Both the position numbers and the translations under genes were made by a program. A stretch of 64,000 bases of DNA from the NCBI GenBank assembly GCA_051884915.1, contig JBJEWF010000087.1, forward strand, positions 30,595 to 94,594, read 5' to 3'. The notes under the pieces were generated by a model, which had not been told where the DNA came from, made no database searches, and was given only the letters and a program-made list of their open reading frames with translations. Positions 18,840 to 64,000 of the stretch are shown here, piece by piece; position 1 is the stretch's first letter; every line of letters begins with the position of its first letter. The stretch is from Kiritimatiellia bacterium. GTDB lineage: Bacteria; Verrucomicrobiota; Kiritimatiellia; RFP12; UBA1067.

Positions 18840-18860
18840 GTCGGACTCCTTCCCCCCTCG

Positions 18861-19259
18861 TTACATGCTGAAGATCGAGAGATTGTACATGCCGTACTTG
18901 TTGCACGTGTCCAATGCGTCCACGAGGAACTTGTGCGGCGAATCCATCGTGCAGCGCACAAGGACCATGGACTTCTTCGACGTGGCCGACAGCTGCTTGA
19001 TGTTGCGGTCGAGTTCCTTGAGGGAGACGCCACGGCCGTTGAACACCAGGCCGCCGGGACCGATGTCGATCTTGATCTGGGTGTCGTTTTCTTCCTGGTT
19101 CGCGCTCGGCGCCGAGTTCGGCGCCGGCCGGTTCGCGTTCAGCTTGGAGAAAATGTCCTCCTGCTTGATCGTGACCACGAAGAAGATCATCAGCTGGAAC
19201 ACGACGTCGATCATCGGCGTCATCTCCGCTTTGGGATTTTCCTGCGTCTTGCGTGCCAT
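18861..19259 (-). CDS. exbD: Biopolymer transport protein ExbD/TolR
   Basis: 132 aa. EMTPMIDVVFQLMIFFVVT is the conserved TM helix with its Asp, followed by a periplasmic domain. Confidence 0.9.
   Translation of the reverse strand: MARKTQENPKAEMTPMIDVVFQLMIFFVVTIKQEDIFSKLNANRPAPNSAPSANQEENDTQIKIDIGPGGLVFNGRGVSLKELDRNIKQLSATSKKSMVLVRCTMDSPHKFLVDALDTCNKYGMYNLSIFSM
19171..19225 (-). repeat. Copy 1 of a 55-nt near-identical block shared by the tandem exbD paralogs
   Basis: gtgacCacgaagaagatCatcagctggaacacgacgtcgatcatcggcgtcatCt differs at only 3 positions from 19615-19669. The rest of the two genes is strongly diverged. Confidence 0.85.
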
Positions 19260-19280
19260 GTCAATTCCTCCGGCGCCCCG

Positions 19281-19706
19281 TCAGCGCGCCTTGCGCTCCT
19301 GGATCGCCACGAACGAGAGCTTCCACACGCCGCAGGCGGCGCAGATGTTCATCACCCGCGCGACGTCCCGGTGCTTGGCCCGGTAGTCCGCGCGAATCAT
19401 GCAGGGGAAGTCGGTGCCGTAACGCGCCTTGCGCTCCTTGATCTTCGAAGCCAGCATCGCGTCCGTCAACGTGATGTTGGACAGCGAGACGCGTCCGCTT
19501 CGCGCGACGTCGATCGTCAGCTGGGACGGCGGCAGTTCGTCCTGCGTCAGCACGATGCCGTGCTTGCCGTCCTCCAGCTTGATCGTCGAATCCTTGTCGT
19601 CGCTCATCTTCAGCGTGACGACGAAGAAGATGATCAGCTGGAACACGACGTCGATCATCGGCGTCATGTCCAGGGACGCGTCTTCATTTTTCGGTTTCTT
19701 GGCCAT
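19281..19706 (-). CDS. exbD: Biopolymer transport protein ExbD/TolR (second copy)
   Basis: 141 aa. DMTPMIDVVFQLIIFFVVT, followed by a periplasmic domain. Confidence 0.9.
   Translation of the reverse strand: MAKKPKNEDASLDMTPMIDVVFQLIIFFVVTLKMSDDKDSTIKLEDGKHGIVLTQDELPPSQLTIDVARSGRVSLSNITLTDAMLASKIKERKARYGTDFPCMIRADYRAKHRDVARVMNICAACGVWKLSFVAIQERKAR
19615..19669 (-). repeat. Copy 2 of the 55-nt near-identical exbD block
   Basis: gtgacGacgaagaagatGatcagctggaacacgacgtcgatcatcggcgtcatGt; see 19171-19225. Confidence 0.85.
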
Positions 19707-19731
19707 CGGGTCTACTCCCTTCGGAGTTCAA

Positions 19732-20550
19732 TCAGGCCTGGGCTTCCGATTCGACTTCGACGTTGCGGAGATCCTTGATGAGCTCCATCGTCAGCGCCGT
19801 CATGCGAAGGATGAGGCGGTTCGCGTTGTTGCGGATGGAGTAGAAGATCGTCAGCGCCGGGATCGAGACCACCAGACCGGCGGCCGTCGTCCACAGCGCC
19901 TGGGAGATGTTGCCGGCCAGCGCGCCGATGTCCGGCACGCCCGAAGCGAGAGTGGCGAAGCACATGATCATGCCTTGCACCGTACCCAGCAGACCGAGCG
20001 AAGGCGCGAGGTTGGAGCACACCGAAATCCACGTCAGACGCTGCATGATGCGCTCCGTCTCAAGATCGGCCGCCGCGTTGACGGATTCCTGAATGACGTC
20101 GAAGCCCTCCTCCACGTGCTGGAACGCGGCCGCCAGGATGTTGGACATCGCGCTCGGCTCGCTCTCGCACGCCTTCAGCGCCTTCATCACGTCGCCCTCG
20201 GCCATCGCGCCCTGGACGCTGTTGATGAGGGACTGCGGCATCAGCTTCTGGGGCTTGATCAGCACCCAGCAGTCCACCGCGAAGTAGATCGCCGCGGCGC
20301 CGTCGGCGAAAAGGGCGAACCACAGGATCACGCCCAGCGCGCCCGAACCGAACACGATGTCGAGAAAGCCGTTGCCGCCGCCCCTCTTCTCGCCGGCGTC
20401 GACCGGTTTGCCGCTGGTCGTGTCGACGAGGTCGCTCGCGGGCGCAGAAGAATCCTGGGCCATCGCGACATTCGTCGCAACGGGGGCGACAACCAGGCCG
20501 AGCATCATCAGGACGGCCATTACGGACTTCTGCGTTTTCTTCATGTTCAT
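19732..20550 (-). CDS. exbB: MotA/TolQ/ExbB proton-channel protein with a signal peptide and a periplasmic N-terminal extension
   Basis: The C-terminal half (LGLLGTVQGMIMCF...ALWTTAAGLVVSIPALTIFY) is the ExbB/TolQ signature. I moved the start to ATG 20550 (MNMKKTQKSVMAVLMMLGLVVAPVATNVAMAQ), which is preceded by AAGGAAC. Confidence 0.88.
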   Translation of the reverse strand: MNMKKTQKSVMAVLMMLGLVVAPVATNVAMAQDSSAPASDLVDTTSGKPVDAGEKRGGGNGFLDIVFGSGALGVILWFALFADGAAAIYFAVDCWVLIKPQKLMPQSLINSVQGAMAEGDVMKALKACESEPSAMSNILAAAFQHVEEGFDVIQESVNAAADLETERIMQRLTWISVCSNLAPSLGLLGTVQGMIMCFATLASGVPDIGALAGNISQALWTTAAGLVVSIPALTIFYSIRNNANRLILRMTALTMELIKDLRNVEVESEAQA

Positions 20551-20611
20551 TTTCTTTTGTTCCTTGCTTAGACTGTATTGTCGGATACCTGATTCAAACT
20601 CGCGCATCACC

Positions 20612-21406
20612 CTACCGGGCCGCCCACGGGCTGGACTTGTAGGTTCTCTTCAGCTCGCGGCGCATCGCATCGGCGCGGCCGCTCTGGCCCAGGTGCTCGA
20701 AGCACTTGGCGGCCTTGTAGAGCGCCTCCGGACGCAGCCGGTCGGCGATTTCCGGATCGCGGCAGCAGAGCACGACGCGCAGATAGCCGTCCGCCAGCGC
20801 CTTCTTCGCCGCGTCCGCGCTGTCGTTCCCCGCCTTCATGACGATGTCGCCACGCATGAGCAGCGCGGCGCCGGCGGAGAAACCGTCTCCGCTCTTGGCG
20901 GCCCGGTCAAGCAGCTTCTCAAGAGCCGGGACTCTGTCCAGCCCCAGCAGCGACGCCCAATAGGCCGGCGCCAGATCGCCCTTGTAGGCCGCCGCGGGTT
21001 CGCCGTCGATGATCGCCTTGCACGCCCGGTAGGCGTCGTTGGGCTTCGAGGCCGCAAGATAGGCTTCCGCCAGATACCGCCCCGCCACCTTGTCCCACTG
21101 CAGATGCTTGTATTCGGCCACGATCTTCTGCAGGGCGGGAATCGCCGCCGCGCCCTGTCCCTGCGCGACGCGGGCGATGGCATCGTCCAGCGCCGCGGGC
21201 TTCTCGATGTCGACATTCTCGACTTCGGACTCCTTGAACTGGAGCTCCACGCCGCCCTTCGTCACCACATAGGCCTTGTCGCGCGAACTCCAGGCGATCA
21301 TGCCCTTCTGCGTGTCGCCGTTCTCGGTCGTGATCGTGCCTTTCGCCGCGCCCCATGCCGATGCCGCCGCGCAGACCGCAAAAACCCAAACTACGCTCCT
21401 GTACAT
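20612..21406 (-). CDS. Secreted TPR-like/helical-repeat protein
   Basis: 264 aa. Signal peptide MYRSVVWVFAVCAAASAWGAAKG, a small beta-rich head, then Ala/Leu-rich helical repeats. A GGAGG lies in the 12-nt gap after the large TPR gene. Confidence 0.6.
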   Translation of the reverse strand: MYRSVVWVFAVCAAASAWGAAKGTITTENGDTQKGMIAWSSRDKAYVVTKGGVELQFKESEVENVDIEKPAALDDAIARVAQGQGAAAIPALQKIVAEYKHLQWDKVAGRYLAEAYLAASKPNDAYRACKAIIDGEPAAAYKGDLAPAYWASLLGLDRVPALEKLLDRAAKSGDGFSAGAALLMRGDIVMKAGNDSADAAKKALADGYLRVVLCCRDPEIADRLRPEALYKAAKCFEHLGQSGRADAMRRELKRTYKSSPWAAR

Positions 21407-21418
21407 TGCCGCCTCCTT

Positions 21419-24400
21419 TTAATCCGCCTTGACCGAATTGAGCGCGTTCTGCACATCCGTCTTGCGCTTGCCGTCCGGAAAGAGCTCAAGATAGGTATTC
21501 GCGTACCTGACGATCGTCTCGCGCTGCTCCGCCTTGGCCTCCTTCTCCTCTTTCGAGCCGTCCGCCATCTTCGGCAGAATCTTCGCCATCAGCGGCAGCG
21601 CCGCGGCGTAGCACCGTTCCAGATTGGCGAGTTCGGCCGGCGTCATGTCCTTCGCCGGGTGCGCCTCCGTCGGCTCGTGCGACATCAGGAAGGCCTGGAA
21701 GCCGGACACCGCCAGGCGCGCGGTCTCCTCCGCCTTCGCCGCCAGGCCCATCGCCTCCTCGGCCTCCATCTTCCGCACCAGGATCTCCGCCGAGCGCAGT
21801 TCGAGAATGTCCAGATCGGCTTTCGTCTTCTTGAAGGCGCGGACCTTCTTGAGCGCGCCCACGGCCGCGTTGAAATACTTGCGGCGCATGTCGTCGTCCT
21901 TCTCGCGGCGGCCTTCCTCGGCGGCGATTTCGACGATCATCTCGTAGGCGTCGACCACCAGGCGGCTCTTGCCGTATTTCTCCGTGAAATCGTCCAGCTT
22001 CTGGTGGGCTTCGCTCCAGGACTCCGCCCCCTTGAGCGCCTTGGCCTGGCCAACCAGCGCCATCTGGACGATGGCGGTCGCGTTCGACGCGCCCTTCGAC
22101 AGGTCAATGGCCTTCGCGTAGGCCTCCTGCGCGACGTCCCATCCCTTCGCGTCCAGCAGGGCGTTGCCCGCCATCAGGAACTGGCCGGCCGTGTACTTCC
22201 CGTCCGGCGTCGAGAGCATCTGCCGGTACTGCGCGACGCCTTCGGCGCGCAGCCCCATCTCGATGAGCGTCTTCGCCAGGCGCGGCACCGAGTTCTTGGC
22301 CTCGTCCGAATCGGGGAATTCCTTCTGCAGGCGGGCGAACGCCTCCTGCGACTTCTCCATGTTCTTCTCCGCCGTCCAGATCGTTCCGATCTTCACGAGA
22401 ATCTGCGGCGCGTACCGGCCCTTCGGGTTGGTCGCGAGATAGTTCTCGTAGGCCTTGACGGCCATGCCGCGGAACGCCGGAATCTTGTCCGCCGGCCATT
22501 GCAGGCGCTGCCAGCTTTCACCTTCGAGATACTGGGCCTGTTCGCGCTGGAGGACGTACGTGTCCCGTTCGGCGGCCGGCAGGCCCTTGTCCTCCAGCGC
22601 CTTCCCGATCAGGGCCGTCGTCGCGCGGAAATCCTTGATCGCGCCCGCCACGCCGCCATAGCCCTGCTTGCGGAGGCTCTCCGCCGCCGCCACGTCATTC
22701 GTCCCGGCTGCCGCGTCGAACGACGCGAAGCCGCGCTTCTGCTCCATCAGCGCCAGACTCAGCTGCGAGGAGATCTTCTCGCTGGGCTTCTTCGCGACGT
22801 TCGCGAACTTGCGCAGCCAGCTTTCCTGCTCGTGCGAATTGCCGAGTTTGCCATGGCAGGTCGAGAGGCATTGCAGCGAGCTCGCGTAGTACGGCGAGTT
22901 CGTGTAGGCGGTCGCCACCATTTCGTAGAAGTGGATCGCCTTCTCCCAGTCCTCGGCCTTCATCGCCTGCCCCGCCAGGGAGAGCGCCGTCTGCGACGCG
23001 TTGTAATGGCTGCCGAAGTTCTTGAAATAGAGGTCGTAGACTTCCTGCGAACGCGCCAGCGCGCCCGTTTCGCGCTCCTTGATCGCCAGACGGAGCAGTT
23101 CGTCGCCGGCGGCGCGCTCCCGCGCGTCGCCCTTGCCGGCGAACTGCTTGACGAGCTCCTCTTCCGCCGCCGTCGCCGCCGCGCGGAACTCCTGCTTCTT
23201 CTTGGCGTCCCTTTCGTTCTGCCCCAGGGCCAGGTTGCAGTCCGCCAGGATGGCGATCGCCCCCGGCGCCTCCTCCGCGTCCGGGAACTGCTTCAGGAGC
23301 GCCGTGTAGGCCTTGAGCGCCCCCGCGAAGTCGCTGCCCTTGAATATCGAATAGGCGTTGTTGAACTGCGCCTGACGGACCTTCGCCATCTGGTCCGGCG
23401 AAATGTTCACGGCCTTCTTCAGGTCCTTTTTGTAGCGTTCCTGGACGAAAGCCGCAATCTCCTCGTAGATCTGCCCCGCATCCGCCGCGACCGACGATTC
23501 CGGGTATTTCACGTAGACGTTGACGGCGTGGTTGAAGGCGCCCAGACCGTTGCGCTTGCCGTTCACCTTCGCCCCGAGGATGGCGGCGGTGATCTTCGCG
23601 TCGTCGGGCTTCGCCGCCTTCGCTTCGGCCTTGGCCACGTCCCACAGCATCTTCGCCAGCAGATAGCGGCACTCGGGCATCGGGCTCATGCGCACATAGC
23701 CCAGCTTGCCGTCGGGATCCTGCTCCAGCAGGCTGTTGTGGATCTCCGCCAGCTGCGGCATGTAGCCGTTCACCAGGCTCTGCGCCTTCTCGACGTTGCC
23801 GGTCAGCATCTCGATGTGCGCCTTCATCGCGATGGCCTTGCCGAACACGATGATGAGGTCGTTCTTCCACAACAGCTTGTCCACCAGCGCCGTCGCCTGG
23901 GCGAGGTAGCTCTTCCGCTTCTCCAGCAGGGCCTTGTCCTTGCCGCCCTCGACCTTGATGTCCTCGGCCAGATTGATGAACAGCCCCGCCGCCTCCATCG
24001 CCACCGCGCACCAGCGCTCTTCCGGCAGATTCTTGGACAGCAGCCCGCCGTACATCTTCACGGCCTCGTCGAAATTCCTCTCGGCCACGCAGATCTGCGC
24101 CCACGTGAAACCGGCCTGGACGTAGAAGTCGACCAGTTCCGGACCCGGCTTCTGGACTTTCGCGAAGAACTCCTGGTAGATCTTGCGGCACTCGGCCATC
24201 ATCGAACGCGCGTAGTAGGCGTCGGCCATGGACAATTTCAGCGCCCAGTACTCGCTGCCGTTCTTGTCCTGCATGCCGTCGATGACCTTCTGCACGTCCG
24301 CAAACTTGCCCAGCCGGAGATCGCCCTGGATTTCCAGGACTTTCAGCTTCGGCCCGAGCTGGGGCCACTTCTTCTTGGCCGCGGCGATCACGATTTCGGC

Positions 24401-24580
24401 GAAGTCGGGCATGTTCGCCTCGATCAGCGCCGCGATGTAGGCTTCCTCCTCCTTCATCGCCGCGGCGTCGGCGTCGGCCGGCTCGGCGTCGGCCGCGCGC
24501 GCGTGCGCGAACGGAACGAGGACACTCGCGGCCAGCGCCGCGAATGCGAGAGCACGACTATAGGTATGGCTAAATCTCAT
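21419..24580 (-). CDS. Large secreted tetratricopeptide (TPR) repeat protein
   Basis: About 1053 aa from ATG 24580 (MRFSHTYSRALAFAALAASVLVPFAHARAAD, signal peptide). It shows many 34-aa-type A/Y/L-rich repeats (e.g. AYYARSMMAECRKIYQEF, AQYLEGESWQRL). The track start 24688 would run through the pgk terminator. Confidence 0.75.
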   Translation of the reverse strand: MRFSHTYSRALAFAALAASVLVPFAHARAADAEPADADAAAMKEEEAYIAALIEANMPDFAEIVIAAAKKKWPQLGPKLKVLEIQGDLRLGKFADVQKVIDGMQDKNGSEYWALKLSMADAYYARSMMAECRKIYQEFFAKVQKPGPELVDFYVQAGFTWAQICVAERNFDEAVKMYGGLLSKNLPEERWCAVAMEAAGLFINLAEDIKVEGGKDKALLEKRKSYLAQATALVDKLLWKNDLIIVFGKAIAMKAHIEMLTGNVEKAQSLVNGYMPQLAEIHNSLLEQDPDGKLGYVRMSPMPECRYLLAKMLWDVAKAEAKAAKPDDAKITAAILGAKVNGKRNGLGAFNHAVNVYVKYPESSVAADAGQIYEEIAAFVQERYKKDLKKAVNISPDQMAKVRQAQFNNAYSIFKGSDFAGALKAYTALLKQFPDAEEAPGAIAILADCNLALGQNERDAKKKQEFRAAATAAEEELVKQFAGKGDARERAAGDELLRLAIKERETGALARSQEVYDLYFKNFGSHYNASQTALSLAGQAMKAEDWEKAIHFYEMVATAYTNSPYYASSLQCLSTCHGKLGNSHEQESWLRKFANVAKKPSEKISSQLSLALMEQKRGFASFDAAAGTNDVAAAESLRKQGYGGVAGAIKDFRATTALIGKALEDKGLPAAERDTYVLQREQAQYLEGESWQRLQWPADKIPAFRGMAVKAYENYLATNPKGRYAPQILVKIGTIWTAEKNMEKSQEAFARLQKEFPDSDEAKNSVPRLAKTLIEMGLRAEGVAQYRQMLSTPDGKYTAGQFLMAGNALLDAKGWDVAQEAYAKAIDLSKGASNATAIVQMALVGQAKALKGAESWSEAHQKLDDFTEKYGKSRLVVDAYEMIVEIAAEEGRREKDDDMRRKYFNAAVGALKKVRAFKKTKADLDILELRSAEILVRKMEAEEAMGLAAKAEETARLAVSGFQAFLMSHEPTEAHPAKDMTPAELANLERCYAAALPLMAKILPKMADGSKEEKEAKAEQRETIVRYANTYLELFPDGKRKTDVQNALNSVKAD

Positions 24581-24587
24581 GGCGGCA

Positions 24588-24616
24588 AGTATAATGGAAA
24601 AACCGGCATGCGTCAA
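24588..24616 (-). promoter_or_regulatory. Sigma70-type promoter TTGACG-17-TATACT, 7 nt upstream of the TPR gene ATG (candidate leaderless)
   Basis: Minus strand reads gtgcTTGACGcatgccggtttttccatTATACTtgccgccATG. The -35 hexamer lies in the loop of the pgk terminator hairpin. Confidence 0.7.
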
Positions 24617-24628
24617 GCACGCCGGTTT
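24596..24628 (-). terminator. Rho-independent terminator after pgk
   Basis: Minus-strand RNA reads AAACCGGC-(13-nt loop)-GCCGGUUU followed by UUCC. The stem is 8 bp and the U-run is 5. Confidence 0.65.
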
Positions 24629-24674
24629 CGAAAAAGTTGCCTTTTCCAGGCGACTTCGCCATCTGTTCCCGCGG

Positions 24675-25988
24675 TTACTTGTCCTCAAGCGCCGCGACGC
24701 CCGGCAGGACCTTGCCTTCGAGATATTCGAGCGACGCGCCGCCGCCCGTCGAAATGTGGGACATTTCGGCCGCCTTGCCGCTCTTCTTCACCGCGCTGAC
24801 GGAATCGCCGCCGCCGATGATGGACATGCCGCCGTTCGCCTTGACCGTGGCGACCGCGTCGCACACGCCAAACGTGCCCTTCGCGAGCGGCGGGAACTCG
24901 AAACAGCCCATCGGGCCGTTCCACACGACCGTCTTCGCCGCCTTGACCGCGTCGGAGAAGAGCGCGATCGACTTCGGGCCGATGTCAAGCCCCATCCAGC
25001 CGTCTTCGATGTCGCCCTCCGAGACCTTCATCTCGATGTCGGACGCGTCCTTCTCGGCCGGGAACTTGTTCGCGACCACGTCGTCGACGGGGAGCAGGAA
25101 CTTGATGCCCTTGGCCGCCGCCGCGTCCAGCATCTCCTTCGCGTACGCGAGCTGGTCGTCCTCGCACAGGGACGCGCCGATCTTCACGCCCTGGGCCTTC
25201 TTGAACGTGTAGGCCATGCCGCCGCCCACGATGAGCGTGTCGACCTTGTTGAGGAGGTTCTTGATGACCTTGAGCTTGTCGGAAACCTTCGCGCCGCCGA
25301 GAATGGCCACGAACGGACGGACCGGATTCTCGACCGCATCGCCGAGGAACTTGATTTCCTTCTCAAGCAGGAAGCCGCTCACCGCCGGACGCAGATAGTC
25401 CGCGATCACGGCCGTCGAAGCATGGGCGCGGTGCGCCGTGCCGAACGCGTCGTTCGCATAGACGTCGCCGTAGGACGCGAGCTTCTTCGCCATCGCGATG
25501 CGCTGCTCCTTGAGTTCCGCCTTCTTCGCCTGGAACTCCTCTTCCGTCAGATGGATGCCCTTCTTCTCGTCGTCCTTCTTGACCTTGCCGTCCTCGGCCT
25601 TGTAGAAGCGGGTGTTCTCAAGCAGCGTGACGTCGCCCGGCTTCATCGCCGCGACAATCCCGTCCGCCGCCATGCAGTCCGGCGCGAACGTGACGGGCCG
25701 GTCGAGAAGCTTCGCCAGCGCCTCCGCCACCGGCTTCAGCGTGAACGCGGCATTGTCCGCATTCGGCGCCGCGCCCAGCTTGACGCCCTTCGGGCGGCCG
25801 AGGTGGGACATCAGAACGAGCGAAGCCCCCTGCTCAAGCACGTACTTGATGGACGGAAGCGCCGCGACGATGCGCGTGTCGTCCGTGATCTTGCCGGAGC
25901 CGTCCTTGGCCATCGGCACGTTGAAATCGACGCGCATCACCACGCGCTTGCCCGCGAGATCGATGTCGCGAAGAGTCTTCTTAGCCAT
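24675..25988 (-). CDS. pgk: Phosphoglycerate kinase (long form)
   Basis: [25 protein letters not shown]...SHLGRPKG...[13 protein letters not shown]...GGGDS...STGGGASLE. The 437-aa length includes a charged segment before NDAFG. Confidence 0.96.
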
Positions 25989-56519: not shown

Positions 56520-58193
56520 CTATTCGTCCAGCGTGCCCTTGTAGACGACGCGCTTGACTTTCTGAATCGACGTGCGCACAAGCGGCTCCCTTGAGACGAC
56601 GACCTTGCGGACGCGCTTGTAGTCCGCCAGATGCGCGCACTGGTCATGGACGTGCCGCTGGGCGATTTTCACCGCCTCCTCCCAGGGCGGCTCGACGCCG
56701 CCGTTGCGCGCCACCAGCAAATCCATGTTCGGATGGACGACGCATCCCACCCTCTCGCCCGGGAGCCCGCCCGTGAGATAGCCGATGACGATGCAATCGG
56801 ACACGAGGGGGTCGGCGGCAATCCGGTTCTCGACCTCTTCGGGATAGATGTTCTTGCCTTCGCGGTTGACGATCAGCGCCTTCTTGCGCCCGCAAATGGA
56901 AATCAGCCCGTCCGCCGCGATGGTGGCCAGGTCGCCGGTCTTCAGCCAGCCGCCCGCGTCGAACGCCTCGGCCGTCGCCGCCTCGTTGTGCCAGTAGCCC
57001 CTCATGGTGATCGGACCGCGGACCTGCAGTTCCCCCACGCCCTGCTCGTTCCGGTCGGCAAGCCGGACTTCGATGTTCGTCAGCTTCCGCCCGATCGTCC
57101 CGATGCGCGCGCACTTCGGCCCCGAAATGGAAACGACGGGCGAACATTCAGTCAGGCCGTAGCCTTCGAGAACGGGGATGCCCAGAGCCTTGTACCCTTC
57201 CAGCACATGTTTCGGACACGGCGCGCCGCCGACGATCATGAAGCGCAACCGCCCGCCAAGCCCCTTCCGGATCGCCCGGAAGACCAGTTTCTTCAAACCG
57301 ATCTTCATCAGGATCCGCGCCTTTGCCGACTTCTTCAGGTTGTCGTCGATCTTGTCGAAGATCTTCTCGGCCAGAAGCGGCACGCTCATGACAATGGAAG
57401 GGCGCAGGAACTTGACGTCCTCGCCGATCGTATAGAGCGAACGGACAAAATGCATGCCGGCGCCCACGAGCATCGGCACCACGAAATTCGTGCAGAACGA
57501 AAACGCGTGGAAGAGCGGAAGCACCACCAGGAAGACGTCCTCGGGGGAGAGCGTTTCGTCAAACGCCTCCAAGGCGCCCTCGGCATCGGCCGTGAAATTG
57601 CCATGCGTAATCATGGCGCCCTTCGGCTTGCCCGTCGTTCCCGACGTGTAGATGACCGAAGCCACGTCCCCTTCCCGCGCAACGTGCTCGTCGAACCAGC
57701 ACGAAGCGCCGGGCGTCGCCGCCGACTTCAGGCTTTCGTAGTCGTAGACCGGGACGGAACCAATCGGCTCGTAGGCCGTCTCCCCGCCATCGACGACAAC
57801 CACCGCACGGACGGCGGCCAGCCGCGGAACGATGTTCCTCATGACCGGCAGGTGCGCCCGGTCCGTCGTGACGACGACGGCGGACGAATCGGAAAGAATG
57901 TAGGCGATTTCCTCCGTATGGAGTTTGGGATCCAGCGGAACCACGCTGACGCCGGCGCCACTGCAGGCCAGATAGGACTCCATCCAGTCGGGGCCGTTCG
58001 GCAGGATGAGTGCCACGTTCTCGACCTGCGGCTTCAGACCGAATCCGGGGCCATACGCCTCGGCGGTCTTCCGGACGCCCGCCAGAAACTCCGCGTAGGT
58101 GCGCGTGCGCCAGGTTTTGGCGTGACAATAGCGCAAAGCCACGTTCTGCGGCGTTTCCTTCGCAAATCTCTCAAGATAGGAGCGTATCGTCAT
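56520..58193 (-). CDS. Long-chain-fatty-acid--CoA ligase-like AMP-dependent synthetase
   Basis: YTSGTTGKPKGAM, GYGLTE, GWLKTGD and GKNIYPEE are adenylation motifs. I moved the start to ATG 58193 (AGGAAAG 8 nt upstream), because the track ATG 58241 lies inside the predicted -10 region. Confidence 0.85.
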   Translation of the reverse strand: MTIRSYLERFAKETPQNVALRYCHAKTWRTRTYAEFLAGVRKTAEAYGPGFGLKPQVENVALILPNGPDWMESYLACSGAGVSVVPLDPKLHTEEIAYILSDSSAVVVTTDRAHLPVMRNIVPRLAAVRAVVVVDGGETAYEPIGSVPVYDYESLKSAATPGASCWFDEHVAREGDVASVIYTSGTTGKPKGAMITHGNFTADAEGALEAFDETLSPEDVFLVVLPLFHAFSFCTNFVVPMLVGAGMHFVRSLYTIGEDVKFLRPSIVMSVPLLAEKIFDKIDDNLKKSAKARILMKIGLKKLVFRAIRKGLGGRLRFMIVGGAPCPKHVLEGYKALGIPVLEGYGLTECSPVVSISGPKCARIGTIGRKLTNIEVRLADRNEQGVGELQVRGPITMRGYWHNEAATAEAFDAGGWLKTGDLATIAADGLISICGRKKALIVNREGKNIYPEEVENRIAADPLVSDCIVIGYLTGGLPGERVGCVVHPNMDLLVARNGGVEPPWEEAVKIAQRHVHDQCAHLADYKRVRKVVVSREPLVRTSIQKVKRVVYKGTLDE

Positions 58194-58219
58194 CTTCTTT
58201 GCTTTCCTGCGTCTCCGAT

Positions 58220-58228
58220 AATCTATCA
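58220..58228 (-). promoter_or_regulatory. Extended -10 element TGATAGATT upstream of the acyl-CoA ligase gene
   Basis: Minus strand reads gggataTGATAGATTatcggagacgcAGGAAAGcaaagaagATG. Confidence 0.45.
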
Positions 58229-58263
58229 TATCCCGTGCCACGCATCAAGCGCGGCAATCGCTA

Positions 58264-59202
58264 TTAAAAGTACCATTTCAGGGGGTCTCGGAAGCGATCC
58301 AGGAAGATTTTCTGTTCCCTTGCCACCAGGACGCGGGCGGACAATTCCTGGCACGCCCCTGCCAGTTCGCCGGGATCCAAGGCAAGCGCCGCCGTCGACA
58401 GGGCGTCTGCCACGGCCGCCGACGTCGGGCAGTACGCCCACGTCTGCGCCCACCGGCCGGCGGCGGCGCGTTTCCGGACGTCCACGACATGCTGTCCCCG
58501 GATCTCGAAACCGCTTCCGGAAAGAGCCGCGCCATCCGTCAGGCGAACGACCGTCTCCAGTCGTGTCCGTTTCTTCCAGACGCCACCCACTCCCAGCGGC
58601 CAGCCCCGGCCCGTGCCGTCCATGTCGCCCCACGCCAGCAGCGTCGACGTGCCCGCGTCCAGGAGACACGAGCCGATTTCAAACTGCTCCGACTTCAGAA
58701 TGCGGGCCGCCTCGTCCAGGGCAAAGCCCTTGCCGATTCCGCCAAAATCAAGTTCGAGCGGCGTCGCGCGGCCCAGGGCATCCGCCGTGACCGAAACCCG
58801 GCGATGTTCCACGTCCAGAACAAGCCGCTGCATCCCGCCCCGCGCAAACGCCTCGTCGCGCGCCTCCCGGGGCAGCGCGTCCCAGGTTGCGCCCGCCGCG
58901 CGCAGTCTGTCCATGATCGGGCCGACGGTCGGGTCGAACGCGCCCCCCGTTGCCGCGCAGACGCGCGTGGCCGTCACCAGAAGGTCCATCGTCTCGGCCG
59001 CGACGGTCGCGATCCGCCCCGGGGACAGTCCCCGGACGACCGCCACGTCGCTCGTGTCGTTGAACCGGCTCAACAGCAGTTCCAGGGCGTCGATCCGGTC
59101 GAAAACGGCCGCCGCCGCCGCACCGCAGAGAGAGGGGTCCTCAGTCAAACCAAAGGACACCGAAAACTCGGTGTCCATGGCCTTGTGGCTGAATTTCTCC
59201 AC
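58264..59202 (-). CDS. apbE: FAD:protein FMN transferase (ApbE family) without a recognisable signal peptide
   Basis: 312 aa. AMDTEFSV (compare the AMGT motif), FDPTVGP, DFGGIGKGFALD and SGSG are ApbE-type motifs. The N-terminus MEKFSHK has no hydrophobic leader or lipobox. Confidence 0.8.
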   Translation of the reverse strand: MEKFSHKAMDTEFSVSFGLTEDPSLCGAAAAAVFDRIDALELLLSRFNDTSDVAVVRGLSPGRIATVAAETMDLLVTATRVCAATGGAFDPTVGPIMDRLRAAGATWDALPREARDEAFARGGMQRLVLDVEHRRVSVTADALGRATPLELDFGGIGKGFALDEAARILKSEQFEIGSCLLDAGTSTLLAWGDMDGTGRGWPLGVGGVWKKRTRLETVVRLTDGAALSGSGFEIRGQHVVDVRKRAAAGRWAQTWAYCPTSAAVADALSTAALALDPGELAGACQELSARVLVAREQKIFLDRFRDPLKWYF

Positions 59203-59205
59203 GCG

Positions 59206-61359
59206 CTATTTCTTTCTGCAGCACATCCAGCAGATTGCGCAGCTGACCGCCGCGAAGCACAACGACGTGCACCGGTGGCTCCACAGGAGGATTTCCTGTC
59301 CGTGCGACCCGAAGACCGTCATCATCGGCATGACCGACGTGAACACGACGGCGGCCGCCAGGAACGTCCAGAAGGCCCACAGGACGGACATCCACAGCTT
59401 CTTCGTCCGGTCGGCCGTCCGGAAGAACAGCATCAGCAGCGCGCAGGCCGCGAAGACGCCGCCGGCGACCATGTGCAGAACCAGCCACCAGCCCGTCATT
59501 CCGCCCATGAACCAGCCGAGCGCGCCCGACAGGATCTGGTAGAGGAGACCCGCCACGAATCCAAGGTCGACCAGCCACTTGAAGAGCCCCCAGGCGAATT
59601 CGCCCGTCTCGTCGGCCACCCACTTGGCGAGTTTCTGAAACGCCCAGGCAACCGTCGCCGCCGCAAAGAGGCACATCAGGCCGAACGCGACCCAGAGGAA
59701 GACCTTGAACACGGGACGCAGCGCGAAGGTTGAACCCAGAACGGTGTGGTAGAACCTTCCGACGCCGAGGAATTCGGCTTGCGGAACGGATTCGACGGCG
59801 GCGTCGACAATCGGCCCCGCCGGCCGGATCGAGCCGAGGAAGAACTGCGAATCGTCCGAATGGCAGTCGGCGCAGACGGCCGGCGCCGCGCCCATGGCCT
59901 TGCGCGCGGGGCGGACGTCGTGCCCCAAGGCCCAGGACACGGGCTTGGCGGCGGCGTGCGCCGCGTGGACGAGGTTCGTGCCTTCGAGCCGCCACAGCTG
60001 GCCATGGCCGACGAACGCGTACGCCTTGTCCGCCGCCCGGGCGGCCAGTTCCCGCAGAGCCGACGCAAGGACGGCCCTGGTGAAGGCGTTTGTCGTGTCG
60101 AGGGCCTTGACGTCCTGGAGCGCGTCCGGGAGAATCGGCACCGGCGCACCATCCTTCAGTTCCGCGAAATAGCTCGGCCACACCATCCGCCGCGCCTCGA
60201 TGACGCCCTTCGCGTTCCGGACGAACACGGGTTCGAGGATGAAGGGATTGTCCGTGGCCCACTGCGCACGGCCGTAGATGCCGATGCGGTTCGCGCGCGA
60301 CGTCCGGACCAGACGGCGCTCGCCGCGTTCCGTCACCCCCGCATGGCAGACCGTGCAGGACAGCTTCTCGAAATGGACCAGCGGAATGCCCGCATGGGCG
60401 GGACGGGGACCGCTTCCCTTCGCGCCCACGTGGCAGCCGGCGCAGCTCTTCGTCTTCACGCGATGGTCCATGCCGTTCTGATGGCAGTCGATGCACGTCA
60501 GGCCCCGCTTGAGGTGGACGTCGCCGGCAATCTGATGGGACGGCATGCCTTTCTGCGAAACGCCATGGCAGGACAGGCAGTTCCCGCTCTGCGGCTTGCC
60601 CACCCTGAACAGGCAGCGGTTCTTCTGGTCGAACTGCGTCTTGTCGTAAACCGTGTTTTCGGGAACCCGGAAGAGGTGGTCGTCCGGATTCTCGTTCAGA
60701 AAGGCGGCATCCCAGGAGGATTCAAGGCGCTCGTTCATGCCCTCGACAAGACCGATGCCCGCCGCCGCCGTGGCGGCCCCCTGCCAGTTCTCGCGCAGAA
60801 CCTGGCGCGCCCACTCGCTCGAATCGTATCCGCCCTGCTGGTGGCAGGCAAGGCAGTTCACGCCCAAGGCGCCCGTCACAAACCAGCGCTGCCGCTCGCC
60901 CGCGACCTCCTCCATGGCACGCGGATCGCTGCCGATGCCGCCGCCCGGGAAGGCGCGGCCGAACATCTTCGTCCACTGCCAGCAGGAGATGCCGAGTTCG
61001 CGCGGCGATTTGGCGCCCTCCTGCCCGTGCAGGGAAAGCGGAATGGCCGTGGCCGTCCGGTCGTCCGCGAGAAACCAGGGCTCGCCCTGCACCGAAGCGG
61101 GCGCATCGTTGGTGTCAAGCCCCGTGCGGAAATGGGATCCGCCGCGGGACGAGGCGACGTCATGGCACTGAGCGCACGTTTTCTCCTGCGAGATGGGCGC
61201 CGGCAGACGCCCCCCCGGCGAGACCTTGTCGCCCGCGGCGTCCAGCGGAGCCAGCCGATGGAAGGGAACCGTCCGCCCGCCATTCCAGTGACCCGCGTCG
61301 GCCCCGGCCGAAAGACCGGCGACGAGAGCCGCGGCCAAGATCAAAAAGTTTCTCCTCAT
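59206..61359 (-). CDS. Heptaheme c-type cytochrome fused to a C-terminal five-TM membrane domain
   Basis: Seven CxxCH motifs: CAQCH, CLACH, CLSCH, CIDCH, CAGCH, CTVCH, CADCH. Signal peptide MRRNFLILAAALVAGLSAGA. The last ~173 aa (59209-59727) contain five hydrophobic helices. I prefer ATG 61359, which has GGAGG 6 nt upstream. The track ATG 61365 abuts the SD. Confidence 0.8.
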   Translation of the reverse strand: MRRNFLILAAALVAGLSAGADAGHWNGGRTVPFHRLAPLDAAGDKVSPGGRLPAPISQEKTCAQCHDVASSRGGSHFRTGLDTNDAPASVQGEPWFLADDRTATAIPLSLHGQEGAKSPRELGISCWQWTKMFGRAFPGGGIGSDPRAMEEVAGERQRWFVTGALGVNCLACHQQGGYDSSEWARQVLRENWQGAATAAAGIGLVEGMNERLESSWDAAFLNENPDDHLFRVPENTVYDKTQFDQKNRCLFRVGKPQSGNCLSCHGVSQKGMPSHQIAGDVHLKRGLTCIDCHQNGMDHRVKTKSCAGCHVGAKGSGPRPAHAGIPLVHFEKLSCTVCHAGVTERGERRLVRTSRANRIGIYGRAQWATDNPFILEPVFVRNAKGVIEARRMVWPSYFAELKDGAPVPILPDALQDVKALDTTNAFTRAVLASALRELAARAADKAYAFVGHGQLWRLEGTNLVHAAHAAAKPVSWALGHDVRPARKAMGAAPAVCADCHSDDSQFFLGSIRPAGPIVDAAVESVPQAEFLGVGRFYHTVLGSTFALRPVFKVFLWVAFGLMCLFAAATVAWAFQKLAKWVADETGEFAWGLFKWLVDLGFVAGLLYQILSGALGWFMGGMTGWWLVLHMVAGGVFAACALLMLFFRTADRTKKLWMSVLWAFWTFLAAAVVFTSVMPMMTVFGSHGQEILLWSHRCTSLCFAAVSCAICWMCCRKK

Positions 61360-61392
61360 GAACATCCTCCCCTCACTCCGGTCGCCGGCCTC

Positions 61393-61809
61393 TCACTTCC
61401 CCTCGTCCTTCGTCGCCAGGGAGAAGTTCCACACGTCTGCGGCACGGCACGCATCGATGAGCCCCATCAGCTTTTCATAGGCCGCCGTCTTGTCGGCGCG
61501 GATGACCACGGGCTGGCCCGGATAAAGCTGGGCAATCCGCTTCAGGCGCTCCGTGACGTCCTCCAGGGTCAGTTTCTGCCCGTTGATCGTGACGTCGCCC
61601 TGTTCGTTGAGATTCAGGATGATCTCGCCGGGCATGCGTCCGGGAACGGTCGCCGACTTCGCCGTCGGCAGGGCGATCGCCACTTCCGTTTCCCACTGGG
61701 AAAACACGCTCGACGTCACGAAGAAGCACAGCAGCAGGAAGATGACGTCCATCAAAGACGCCATCTGCACGGCCGGTGCATGGCTTTTGCGCGTACGGTT
61801 GAAGTTCAT
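61393..61809 (-). CDS. exbD: Biopolymer transport protein ExbD/TolR (third copy in the window)
   Basis: 138 aa. QMASLMDVIFLLLCFFV is the TM helix with its conserved Asp, followed by a periplasmic domain. Confidence 0.88.
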   Translation of the reverse strand: MNFNRTRKSHAPAVQMASLMDVIFLLLCFFVTSSVFSQWETEVAIALPTAKSATVPGRMPGEIILNLNEQGDVTINGQKLTLEDVTERLKRIAQLYPGQPVVIRADKTAAYEKLMGLIDACRAADVWNFSLATKDEGK

Positions 61810-62441
61810 GCAAATGCCTTTTCAAGCGCCACGGCCAGCGTTTCCAGACCCGCGACGCGCTTGGCCGTGCGACGACGGAGAAACGCGTGGAACGCCAGAC
61901 ACGGAATGGAGATGACAAGGCCGAACACCGTCGTGATGATCGCCTGGGAAACGCCCTGGGCCAGAACGACCGGACGCGCGTTGGCGGCCAAGTCGCTGGC
62001 GATGCCGCCAAAGGCCTGGAACATGCCGAGAACCGTTCCCAGCAGACCGACGAGCGGCGCGATGACCGCAAGATCCGCCAGCCAGTCGACCGACGCCTGC
62101 AGCCGTTCCGAGACGTGCGAACCCGCCGTCTCAATCGCCGATCTGACATCGGTCTTCGTGCCGGCCGGGGTGCCGCGCACGGCATCGAGCGCGGCGAGCG
62201 CAAGCCCGGCAAACGCGCACGGCCGCCGCTCGCAGAGACGGCGCGCTTCGCCCAGATCCCGCGCCTGAAGTTTGCTGAAAACGTCGCTCACCAGCGTGCG
62301 CGGGGCGAGAGCGCCGCGCCGCTGCGCCAGCAGCAGGTAGAGCACCACCGCGAGGGCGACCACGGAGAGTCCCGCCAGAACCCACATCAGGGGACCGCCA
62401 TAGGCCCATGCCTGGGCAACCGTAATTCCGCTTTCGTTCAT
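61806..62441 (-). CDS. exbB: MotA/TolQ/ExbB proton-channel protein (short form)
   Basis: 211 aa with 3 TM segments. APLVGLLGTVLGMFQAF...TTVFGLVISIPCLAFHAF is the signature. The start overlaps the argH stop (ATGA at 62438-62441). Confidence 0.88.
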   Translation of the reverse strand: MNESGITVAQAWAYGGPLMWVLAGLSVVALAVVLYLLLAQRRGALAPRTLVSDVFSKLQARDLGEARRLCERRPCAFAGLALAALDAVRGTPAGTKTDVRSAIETAGSHVSERLQASVDWLADLAVIAPLVGLLGTVLGMFQAFGGIASDLAANARPVVLAQGVSQAIITTVFGLVISIPCLAFHAFLRRRTAKRVAGLETLAVALEKAFA

Positions 62442-63787
62442 CCCAACAACTCCTTCATGTGCTTTTCAAAATCGGCCTTGCGGGTCCGTGTCAGCGCGTC
62501 CTGCCCGGCGAGACGCGCCTCGTAAAACGACCAATCGAGTCCCGCCGTCGCGCCCGCATGGGACTTGGCCGCCACGGCGGCGTCCGGATCTTCGGCGGCC
62601 AGGGCTTCGAGATTGTCGCGGACCTGGTGGTAGGCTTCGCGCCAGGGCGTCCCGGCGGCGACTTTCCGCAGCGCCACGTCGGTCGCGAAAACCCCGGGGA
62701 CGAACCCGCCGCGCAGGGCGTCCGGATCGACGGACAGCCCGCGCACGATTTTCGCGAGGATTCTCAGCGTCGTCCGCGTGATCGAGAGCCCCTTCATGTA
62801 GAGGCCCTTGCAGTCCTGGAGATCGCGGTTGTATCCGCCGGGCATGGCGTGGAGCAGCGAAAGCGACGCCGTCGCCAGCCCGAGGACCTGCGCCGTCTTC
62901 GAGCGCACGAGCTCCAGCACGTCCGGATTGTATTTCTGCGGCATGATCGAACTGCCCGTGCAGTAGGCGCGCGGCAATTTGAAATAGCCGAACTCGGGCA
63001 TCGAAAAGAGAATGAGGTCTTCAGCCAGGCGCGACAGGACCGCCATGAGCTGCGCCAAGGCCGAAAGCAGGGCGGCTTCATCCTCGCCGCGGGCCATCGA
63101 CGCGCCGAAGACGCTGTGCAGCGGACGGGCGAAACCCAGCAAGTCGCTGGTGCGCTGGCGGTCCAGCGGCAGCGGAACGCCGTACCCGGCCGCGCTTCCC
63201 AGGGGGCAGAGGTCGTTCAGCTTGTAGGCCGCCTCCAGATTCGCCTGCTGGTCGAGAACCATTTCCGCATGCCCCGACGCCCAAACGCCGACCGAACTCG
63301 GCATGGCCGGCTGCAGATGGGTCCGGCCCACCATGGGCAGCCGGTCGTTCGCCCGGCCGAAATCGACCAGCGCGCGCGCAAGAGCCGCCAGTTCGGATTC
63401 GACGCCGAGAAGCTGGTCCTTGATGTGAAGCCGCACGTCGACCGCGACCTGGTCGTTGCGGCTGCGCCCCGTGTGGATTTTCCGGCCCAGGTCGCCGAGG
63501 ACTTCCGTCAATCGCGTCTCCACCGCCATGTGGACGTCCTGGTCCTGTTCGCGGATCACGAAGGTCTTGTCCGCAACCACGTCGGCAAGGGCCGCGCGAA
63601 CCCGGCTCGCCTCCTCGCGGGTCAGGACCGGCGGCACGACGGGCATCTCGGCAAGCATCGTCACGTGCGCGGCCGTGCCCAGACAGTCCCAGCGCACAAG
63701 GTCCATGTCCAAAACGGGGTCGTCCCCGACCGTGTAGTCGAGGACGTCCGGATCCACGTCACCGGTTATCGTCTTTTCCGTCTTCAT
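62438..63787 (-). CDS. argH: Argininosuccinate lyase
   Basis: GTAAHVTMLAEM, TGRSRNDQV, the fumarate-lyase signature GSSIMPQKYNPDVLE, and a length of 449 aa. Confidence 0.93.
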   Translation of the reverse strand: MKTEKTITGDVDPDVLDYTVGDDPVLDMDLVRWDCLGTAAHVTMLAEMPVVPPVLTREEASRVRAALADVVADKTFVIREQDQDVHMAVETRLTEVLGDLGRKIHTGRSRNDQVAVDVRLHIKDQLLGVESELAALARALVDFGRANDRLPMVGRTHLQPAMPSSVGVWASGHAEMVLDQQANLEAAYKLNDLCPLGSAAGYGVPLPLDRQRTSDLLGFARPLHSVFGASMARGEDEAALLSALAQLMAVLSRLAEDLILFSMPEFGYFKLPRAYCTGSSIMPQKYNPDVLELVRSKTAQVLGLATASLSLLHAMPGGYNRDLQDCKGLYMKGLSITRTTLRILAKIVRGLSVDPDALRGGFVPGVFATDVALRKVAAGTPWREAYHQVRDNLEALAAEDPDAAVAAKSHAGATAGLDWSFYEARLAGQDALTRTRKADFEKHMKELLG

Positions 63788-64000
63788 TCAGCATCTTTTC
63801 CATCAAACCATCCGCCTCGTCCAGGAGCGGTCGCAGGACCTCGGCGGACTCGCCGCGGGCGACGCCTACCAGAAACTTGCGGTAGGCGGCGGCCGCGGCG
63901 GCAAGGCCGTCCCCACGCCCGATGGCACAAAACGGCATCTCGCGCGCCTTCTGCCACGCGGCCTGGCGGACCGTCTCATTTCCGGCCGCCAGACCAATGG
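63759..64000 (-). CDS. 3' end of an unidentified gene whose 5' end lies beyond the window
   Basis: Not in the ORF track. This is the only minus frame open from base 63998 inward, and it reads ...IGLAAGNETVRQAAWQKAREMPFCAIGRGDGLAAAAAAYRKFLVGVARGESAEVLRPLLDEADGLMEKMLNEDGKDDNR*. The stop is at 63759-63761, 29 nt inside argH. I do not recognise a function. Confidence 0.4.
   Translation of the reverse strand, partial: IGLAAGNETVRQAAWQKAREMPFCAIGRGDGLAAAAAAYRKFLVGVARGESAEVLRPLLDEADGLMEKMLNEDGKDDNR

Follow-up and report, generated by a model that had tools for sequence, protein, structure and literature searches.

Can a proton-driven stator of the ExbB–ExbD type serve a multiheme cytochrome as its membrane partner? 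This question is raised by a 64-kb stretch of a Kiritimatiellia bacterium contig (JBJEWF010000087.1; GC content about 65%; the whole stretch is called the window here), in which argH, exbB, exbD, a gene for a heptaheme cytochrome and apbE form one tightly packed string on the minus strand. The stop codon of argH and the start codon of exbB share the sequence ATGA, and the same is true for the junction of exbB and exbD. An earlier note on this DNA had raised the idea that these proteins form an electron conduit coupled to the proton motive force (PMF). Its description of the locus turned out to be accurate in every checkable detail, with the gene calls, both ATGA overlaps, the 33-nt gap between exbD and the preferred ATG of the cytochrome gene and the 3-nt gap to apbE all being confirmed on the sequence.

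As to the proposed coupling, the adjacency of stator and cytochrome genes is indeed conserved, but what speaks for it is a synteny restricted to one clade, and the two modules also occur apart from each other. Comparison with other genomes suggests that we are looking at inherited gene order rather than at a new proton-driven electron machine, and the operon is probably a composite, built from independent modules that were joined in an ancestor of the gut and rumen Kiritimatiellae.

Distribution and history of the exbD–cytochrome junction

All close relatives of the locus are found in gut, rumen or faecal Kiritimatiellae assemblies. In 24 of 35 species-representative genomes exbB–exbD is located directly upstream of the cytochrome gene, usually as part of the full string upX–argH–exbB–exbD–cytochrome–apbE–acs–p7, where upX encodes a secreted protein, acs an acyl-CoA synthetase and p7 a membrane protein. 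The flanks of this string can change: one locus (L001) reads upX–argH–exbB–exbD–cytochrome–LpxI, i.e. apbE is replaced, and others (L049–51) read KduI–exbB–exbD–cytochrome–LpxI–LpxB, i.e. argH is replaced by KduI and apbE by LpxI.

The earlier note had named absence of the linkage from related genomes as a finding that would speak against coupling, and this is largely what we observe, since the junction, although kept in these 24 genomes, is missing from the other 11. In one of them (L032), a gene for a GFO_IDH_MocA-type protein with a signal for twin-arginine translocation (Tat) and a methylase gene precede cytochrome–apbE–acs–p7; in another (L016), an SGL-domain gene precedes cytochrome–apbE; and in nine genomes (group B) a cytochrome of about 610 residues, with seven hemes and five transmembrane (TM) helices, is encoded between der and fabH-like genes. 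ExbB and ExbD genes do not occur within 10 kb of the cytochrome gene in L032, L016 or group B. In a crude, distance-based and midpoint-rooted neighbour-joining tree of 50 cytochromes, the sequences linked to GFO_IDH_MocA genes lie outside and an ExbBD-linked cytochrome of 53% identity (L005) branches at the base of the Kiritimatiellae clade, with L016 being nested inside this clade and likewise the group formed by L032 and group B. These three unlinked groups have three different upstream contexts. Gene orders and tree indicate, as the simplest history, that the junction would have been gained once, in a common ancestor of gut and rumen Kiritimatiellae, and lost at least twice. Within the same clade, ExbB proteins are 78–86% identical and the cytochromes 62–75%, and this stronger conservation fits a more constrained, independent role for ExbB.

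The exbB–exbD lineage beyond the gut clade

A homologue search with ExbB was uninformative about distant contexts, because all of the at least 120 matches listed were at least 78% identical; a metagenome scan with an ExbB alignment, however, reached relatives of 27–79% identity. Those readable contexts in which ExbB is at least 70% identical (L052, L054) still show argH–exbB–exbD–cytochrome–apbE. At about 50% identity the cytochrome is no longer present, and its linkage is absent from all ExbB relatives of 55% identity or less with readable downstream sequence. A gene for a protein with tetratricopeptide repeats (TPR) directly follows exbD in 7 of 10 annotated relatives of this more distant group. 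In two of these loci (L059, L060; about 51% identity), upX–argH–exbB–exbD is followed by the gene for a secreted TPR protein of 773–786 residues, the start of which overlaps or abuts the exbD stop; five others (L062, L067, L068, L069, L074) contain exbB–exbD–TPR and no cytochrome, and where annotation extends further (L059, L067) a VWA gene comes next. This ExbBD–TPR(–VWA) arrangement without TonB (L059:7094-11406, L060:7107-9428, L067:6914-10413, L068, L069, L074) resembles Bat-type clusters. The TPR proteins encoded after the ExbB–ExbD pairs of about 50% identity are secreted, 630–835 residues long and of the TPR_6/YfiO type.

In the gut clade, the cytochrome gene thus sits where sister lineages have the TPR gene. 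Since L059 and L060 keep upX–argH–exbB–exbD without the cytochrome, this block is older than the cytochrome association. Moreover, argH and exbB are linked equally tightly over this deeper divergence, and tight adjacency in this lineage is therefore not readable as functional coupling.

A heptaheme cytochrome c joined to a cytochrome b domain

The cytochrome starts with a signal peptide, ends with a hydrophobic domain and contains seven CxxCH motifs (residues 64, 171, 263, 291, 308, 337 and 498). In an alignment of 45 family members with five TM helices (26–88% identity), all seven motifs are invariant, together with H36, H78, H284, H301, H324, H331 and H482, i.e. seven extra histidines, so that each of the seven c hemes could have bis-His ligation. 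The family is large: matches numbered 449 among the scored candidates of 90%-identity clusters, and at 50% identity 653 clusters were found, of which 254 lie below 1e-30. Full-length members almost always contain exactly seven CxxCH motifs and end in either one or five TM helices. NCBIfam and Pfam contain no curated family-level model that matches the cytochrome and give generic multiheme matches only; assignment to NapC/NirT/NrfH failed, with PF03264 scoring 18.3 against a cut-off of 24.1, an anchor that is C-terminal and hemes numbering seven. An AlphaFold2 (AF2) model (predicted local distance difference test score, pLDDT, 81.6; predicted template-modelling score 0.80) shows five long helices after a periplasmic domain of mixed alpha/beta structure. 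A fold search with this model against PDB and viral structures yielded nothing significant (best E about 1); heme-less AF2 models are poor queries for multiheme folds. In PDB, searches by sequence and by profile returned local matches to NrfA-like heme-pair packing plus a weak match to FdnI, and nothing more.

The segment between hemes 6 and 7 (about residues 345–495, window positions about 59880–60330) forms a beta-rich subdomain in the window protein and is variable in length, comprising about 88 residues in the 610-residue forms and about 290–420 in forms of 850–1000 residues (P0121, P0050, P0122); in L049, it carries a low-complexity insertion of the KDLNAP/KDLKDL type.

The 5-TM domain of the earlier note resolves into a single anchor helix and, after it, a cytochrome b domain of the PF01292 (FdnI/HydC) type. 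When 21 C-terminal domains of the family were combined into a profile, this aligned with the stand-alone Ni_hydr_CYTB protein of L046, the gene of which directly follows that of a one-TM family member, with an hhalign probability of 99.7% (E 3.7e-25). Individually, 14 of these 21 domains match PF01292, and FdnI is found weakly by the full family profile. This homology makes the domain a membrane module of a known kind. One-TM family members have a separate Ni_hydr_CYTB gene directly downstream (L046, L047, L134), and in five-TM members the b domain is fused. As judged by its sequence, the window protein combines three parts in a single polypeptide: the heptaheme c domain, the anchor helix and the cytochrome b of the PF01292 type. 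Two TM histidines, H631 and H697, are invariant. In our own reading by the positive-inside rule, the loops QKLAKW and RTADRTKK and the CCRKK tail should be cytoplasmic, which would place H631 and H697 in the outer halves of helices 3 and 5. As these histidines are shared with lineages lacking ExbBD, they seem to be heme ligands rather than a TonB-like SHLS motif.

The protein ends in a Cys-rich cytoplasmic tail, SCAICWMCCRKK (residues about 705–719; 59209–59250, minus strand), which is conserved in Kiritimatiellae members and absent from distant ones, and which could be an acylation or metal-binding site.

Cytochrome contexts in distant lineages

Seven distant contexts with cytochromes of 31–46% identity (L042, L043, L044/45, L046/47, L132, L133, L134) all lack ExbBD. 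Their typical gene order is GFO_IDH_MocA, cytochrome (with Ni_hydr_CYTB in one-TM forms), ApbE, an F5/8-type-C-like secreted protein and PMT_2; the later part of this order varies, and not every member is found in every locus. GFO_IDH_MocA is directly upstream of the cytochrome in six of the seven, and in the seventh (L134) the upstream gene is unannotated and two GFO_IDH_MocA genes are located downstream. Five of the six upstream proteins carry a signal with an RR motif (RRSFLQ, RRVFLQ, RRTFIQ, RRTFLK or RRLFVK) and that of L133 has none, with RR motifs as well as missing ApbE signals having been read directly from the sequences. A signal-less ApbE is encoded in six of the seven contexts, and genes for AP_endonuc_2, 3keto-disac_hyd and ThuA proteins are often found near these cytochromes. 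According to the earlier note, coupling would lose ground if the cytochrome belonged to a known quinol dehydrogenase family with unrelated neighbours; this largely applies, as the protein is a c–b fusion of the quinone-interacting type (PF01292) which occurs in these seven ExbBD-free contexts.

The more probable novelty is one without ExbBD, i.e. a widespread module of a Tat-exported GFO/IDH/MocA protein, a heptaheme c–b cytochrome and a signal-less ApbE, in which the ApbE would act either on a non-canonical site or on the Tat substrate before export.

A stator pair without TonB, TolA or receptor

Both stator proteins of the window exceed the Pfam cut-offs for their domains, and the residues of the proton path are intact in both. 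ExbB is 78–100% identical across the clade, with T136 and T170/T171 being invariant, and the TM helix of ExbD carries the conserved Asp (LMDVIFLLL, as read from the sequence). The best NCBIfam scores of ExbB are 60 for TolQ, against a cut-off of 221, and 51.9 for ExbB (TIGR02797), against 206.2; both are far below the equivalog cut-offs, so that this exbB is assignable neither to TolQ nor to ExbB. For ExbD, TolR scores 48.9 against a cut-off of 127.3 and the ExbD models 34–36 (best 35.9) against 123–153.

The earlier note had stated that this pair is not accompanied by a TonB, a TolA or a receptor, and this statement holds for the operon and also for the relatives. Neither a TonB partner (TM anchor, Pro-rich spacer, TonB_C) nor a TonB-dependent receptor is encoded in the window operon or in the flanks of the relatives (1–10 kb on each side of the query gene), and no TolA, TolB or Pal gene was found in any locus examined. 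The gene cut by the edge of the window, behind which a TonB or a receptor might have been located, is upX, which encodes a secreted protein that is not TonB-like. In the relatives, nothing TonB-like or receptor-like occurs within about 4–6 kb upstream of upX, where unrelated genes are located (OAD subunits, AAA_14, or a glycosyltransferase with FeoAB). The UpX protein itself, of about 390 residues, is specific to the clade, with 195 homologues, all in Kiritimatiellae; full-length versions are encoded at L001:4438-5595, L003:4452-5630 and L005:4374-5588 and, as P0432, on a 115,100-bp contig which also bears an identical ExbB. It has no Pfam match and no HExxH in the sequences read, and its AF2 model (pLDDT 81.9) shows a weak match to a gluzincin-peptidase-like fold (E 0.016–0.1; template-modelling score about 0.3). 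UpX was considered as a hidden TonB or TolA and rejected, as it has a signal peptide, no Pro-rich spacer, no Pfam match and this weakly gluzincin-like fold.

A separate ExbB–ExbD–ExbD set in the window (18861–20610) does have a partner of its own, as had been noted before, namely a TonB-like protein encoded at 17103–18839. The entire second cluster (17103–24688, minus strand) encodes, in this order, a TPR protein of 1089 residues, a secreted 264-residue protein of no recognised family, an ExbB of 292 residues, two ExbD proteins and a 578-residue protein, which features a TM helix, a Glu/Pro-rich TonB-like spacer and, in place of TonB_C, a weak squalene-hopene-cyclase-like C-terminal domain.

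A proposed electron path and its alternatives

If the locus is composite, one of its modules would be the older block upX–argH–exbB–exbD, providing a stator of the ExbB5–ExbD2 type with a probable housekeeping function in the envelope, and the other would be the cytochrome with its ApbE, the latter being an accessory of the cytochrome and not of ExbBD. The cytochrome is envisaged as being exported by Sec and as carrying, in the periplasm, a chain of seven c hemes with bis-His ligation; a single helix would connect this chain to a four-helix cytochrome b of the PF01292 type, which may hold one b heme near the periplasmic face via H631 and H697; this heme b could then exchange electrons with the menaquinone pool. 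We favour an inward direction, in which electrons would flow from Tat-exported GFO/IDH/MocA sugar dehydrogenases via the c hemes and heme b to quinone, because these dehydrogenases are the most conserved partners of the cytochrome in distant lineages.

Several observations weigh against this scenario. No GFO dehydrogenase is found in the window at E < 1e-5; with only two TM histidines being invariant, a two-heme transmembrane relay as in FdnI is not supported; and quinone use by the host organism is an assumption. Furthermore, when asked, as the earlier note had suggested, whether the order exbB–exbD–cytochrome is conserved, the genomes answer in the affirmative: in 35 loci, exbD and the cytochrome gene are separated by 3 nt in the median, with overlaps in 5 of them. 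This junction outlives the swaps of both flanks, which an accidental neighbour would not obviously do, and its persistence through such changes is the strongest argument for a coupling of ExbBD and cytochrome. In addition, no other partner for ExbBD was found in any cytochrome-linked locus, and tblastn searches with seven of the TPR proteins gave nothing in these loci, with the window yielding one 39-residue match beside the other ExbB cluster.

In one alternative, the ExbB–ExbD stator would physically dock on the TM domain of the cytochrome in place of TonB, with the PMF driving or gating the cytochrome; this might mean gating by conformational change, electron transfer uphill or access to a partner in the outer membrane. 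That the order is present in 24 of the 35 genomes, that the junction survives when KduI replaces argH and LpxI replaces apbE, that the ancestral TPR/VWA neighbours are missing and the cytochrome occupies the 'partner' position directly after exbD, that TonB and TolA are not adjacent and that the proton path is intact would all be in line with such docking. We nevertheless regard it as unlikely, since the junction arose only once, within one clade, and at least two later losses left seven-heme, five-TM cytochromes intact, and since the cytochrome family is found without ExbBD in seven distant contexts and the ExbBD lineage without the cytochrome. Besides, the link of exbB to argH, a gene of clearly unrelated function, reaches even deeper, so synteny is not diagnostic here, and the anchor helix and b domain look alike in ExbBD-linked and unlinked cytochromes. 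It is correspondingly improbable that a stator deprived of its ancestral TPR/VWA neighbours has been re-partnered with the TM domain of a c–b cytochrome, such that the PMF gates or drives periplasmic electron transfer in a TonB-independent, redox-related use of ExbBD.

Alternatively, the same cytochrome could operate in the opposite direction, i.e. as a CbcL-like menaquinol oxidase passing electrons outward to periplasmic or extracellular acceptors, by which a fermentative gut anaerobe would dispose of reducing equivalents and in which ExbBD would be irrelevant. In favour of this, the domain layout is that of CbcL, which oxidizes quinol for extracellular electron transfer; loci of the window type have no adjacent dehydrogenase gene, and the host is a gut or rumen anaerobe. 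The most conserved neighbour in distant contexts, however, is a periplasmic Tat-exported dehydrogenase, often together with the 3-keto-sugar pathway genes mentioned above, which suggests an electron donor, and genes for an outer-membrane porin–cytochrome or a terminal reductase were not seen in any locus. We thus consider outward flow rather unlikely, and retain a composite operon with inward electron flow as the preferred explanation.

ApbE and its putative target

The GTG start of apbE is the first possible start after an in-frame stop codon, so that an N-terminal signal peptide cannot be encoded, and the ApbE core begins already at residue 9. Thus, the earlier claim that this ApbE has no export signal stands, as the open reading frame (ORF) cannot extend upstream, and all eight stand-alone ApbE homologues examined likewise start at the ApbE core without a signal. 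The window protein matches ApbE structures in PDB (E 1.7e-11). Residue roles were assigned by matching to the E. coli and T. maritima structures, and the residues binding FAD (D152, G154, I156, K158, G159) and Mg (D266, T270) as well as the base H238 are invariant in the window protein and eight homologues from cytochrome loci. With all FAD, Mg and base residues being kept, the enzyme appears to be catalytically intact. A signal-less, cytoplasmic ApbE is known to be active in Klebsiella pneumoniae (PMC12052999). Since a large flavinylation survey left out signal-less ApbEs (PMC8238504), the cytochrome-linked subfamily would have been missed there.

The link to PMT_2, a GT-C glycosyltransferase, may bear on the location of these enzymes. 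In two loci (L046:11737-14265 and L047:5548-8076), PMT_2 is fused to a C-terminal ApbE in a protein of 842 residues, and PMT_2 and ApbE are also found as adjacent genes, with a stop/start overlap in L043 and 40 nt apart in L042. A hand-drawn topology of the fusion, with its N-terminus inside, 11 TM helices and three inside loops of positive charge, would place its ApbE in the periplasm. Fusion and adjacency suggest that the signal-less ApbE subfamily is held at the membrane by the fusion, probably on the periplasmic side.

In agreement with the earlier note, a canonical flavinylation motif is lacking nearby: a scan for Dxx[ST]G[AS][ST] was empty for all window ORFs of at least 100 residues and for the neighbours at nine loci. 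The cytochrome contains the sequences VTGALG and ILSGALG, with the final S/T missing in both; as degenerate flavinylation sites they were rejected, because they are not conserved in the family consensus. The p7 protein was likewise rejected as a target, as its DGGISGLT lacks conservation, with L005 and L032 having a deletion there. Possible solutions are that a Tat protein is flavinylated before export, that ApbE is itself exported by hitch-hiking on another protein, that it modifies a non-canonical site in the cytochrome, with T355 as an invariant threonine, or that it has some other activity.

Gene organization of the locus

Coordinates are given in table 1. For the cytochrome gene, the preferred ATG is preceded by GGAGG at a distance of 6 nt, i.e. 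has a better Shine–Dalgarno spacing than the alternative start, and is also the start called on an identical contig, where it yields the 717-residue protein and the 33-nt gap mentioned above. The last 29 nt of upX overlap argH, and apbE follows the cytochrome stop codon after 3 nt. A scan for promoters and terminators gave matches at chance level, and between exbD and the cytochrome gene it revealed no convincing internal terminator. A terminator-like hairpin (9 bp, 6 GC pairs, T-rich tail) is located at 59155–59176 (minus strand), inside the 5' end of apbE; the regional total of such matches corresponds to chance level. The genes for the acyl-CoA synthetase and p7 follow apbE in most Kiritimatiellae loci and are not part of the module in distant lineages. 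Farther downstream than p7, the genes encode an HI0933-like flavoprotein, a PHP phosphatase, an EamA transporter and GH92.

Table 1. Features of the upX–p7 region of the window (positions counted from the first nucleotide of the window).
Feature	Position	Strand	Evidence or remark
upX, C-terminal fragment	63759-64000	-	cut by window edge; translation matches upX of L001, L003 and L005
argH, argininosuccinate lyase	62438-63787	-	TIGR00838, 286.4 bits (cut-off 279.5); Pfam Lyase_1
exbB-like stator subunit, 211 aa, 3 TM helices, MotA/TolQ/ExbB family	61806-62441	-	PF01618, 87.8 bits
exbD-like subunit, 138 aa, one TM helix	61393-61809	-	PF02472, 96.4 bits
Cytochrome ORF (preferred ATG 61359, 717 aa)	59206-61365	-	7 CxxCH motifs
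Cytochrome, N-terminal part (about residues 1-535): signal peptide and periplasmic heptaheme c domain	59761-61359	-	
Cytochrome, C-terminal part: anchor helix, 4-helix PF01292-like cytochrome b domain and Cys-rich tail	59206-59760	-	
apbE, FAD:protein FMN transferase family	58264-59202	-	PF02424, 120 bits; no signal peptide or lipobox
Acyl-CoA synthetase (AMP-binding)	56520-58241	-	PF00501, 264 bits
p7, membrane protein, 253 aa	55737-56498	-	no Pfam or NCBIfam match

Implications

If the composite nature of the operon is correct, the value of this locus lies in the cytochrome and not in the motor. The heptaheme c/PF01292 b proteins constitute a large uncharacterised family with consistent partners, i.e. 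Tat-exported GFO/IDH/MocA proteins and signal-less ApbEs, and we found no description of this three-part module in the searchable literature. These associations suggest that periplasmic sugar oxidation, in pathways of the 3-keto-glycoside type, is wired into the quinone pool of glycan-degrading bacteria, including gut and rumen members, and such wiring, if true, would change models of the energy metabolism of glycan degraders. It also leaves a flavinylation puzzle, as a seemingly intact ApbE is combined with no export signal and no recognisable target motif. A coupling of ExbBD to the cytochrome, for which the evidence is synteny within a single clade, would, if true, be the first redox use of a Ton/Tol-type stator; in line with the earlier note's statement that no such system has been described, we found none in the searchable literature, which also yielded nothing specific on cytochromes of Kiritimatiellae.

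Comparison with known systems

At the level of architecture, the cytochrome is best regarded as a variation on the known CbcL/FdnI-type c–b proteins. CbcL of Geobacter is a quinol oxidase in which nine c hemes are fused to a HydC/FdnI-like b domain (PMC6295460). The window protein resembles it in combining an N-terminal periplasmic multiheme c part with a C-terminal PF01292-type membrane b part, both proteins being presumed to be quinone-linked, and this layout points to a link with the quinone pool. However, the window protein has seven hemes, five TM helices and two invariant TM histidines, which implies one b heme, where CbcL has nine hemes, six helices and three conserved histidines; moreover, the gene partners here are a Tat-exported GFO dehydrogenase and ApbE, and the likeness is one of domain layout, compared by published description. 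MtoC/MtrH are grouped with CbcL as inner-membrane fusions of multiheme c and HydC/FdnI-like b domains. The FdnI/HydC/CybB proteins (PF01292), i.e. the membrane subunits of formate dehydrogenase-N and hydrogenases, share the homologous four-helix domain, which in one-TM members of the cytochrome family is encoded by the separate downstream gene. In contrast to FdnI, which binds two b hemes on four histidines and forms a cross-membrane relay, the window family has only the periplasmic-side pair invariant.

The window pair shares with ExbB–ExbD–TonB and TolQ–TolR–TolA the ExbB and ExbD domains, an intact proton path and translational coupling, but it has no adjacent TonB, TolA, receptor, TolB or Pal and scores below all NCBIfam equivalog cut-offs. 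Similarly, the window ApbE has the ApbE fold with all FAD, Mg and base residues, whereas no protein with a Dxx[ST]GA[ST] motif is encoded nearby and the other proteins of the conserved module are extracytosolic.

Finally, in acetic acid bacteria, a Tat-exported periplasmic sugar dehydrogenase, e.g. fructose dehydrogenase, an enzyme treated in PMC8601194, transfers electrons via a multiheme c subunit to the quinone pool. Although these complexes consist of FAD- or pyrroloquinoline quinone-dependent dehydrogenases with a three-heme subunit, and here an NAD(P)-type GFO/IDH/MocA protein would be coupled, as gene order suggests, to a seven-heme c–b fusion, the logic of the electron path would be the same as that proposed for the cytochrome module of the Kiritimatiellia locus.

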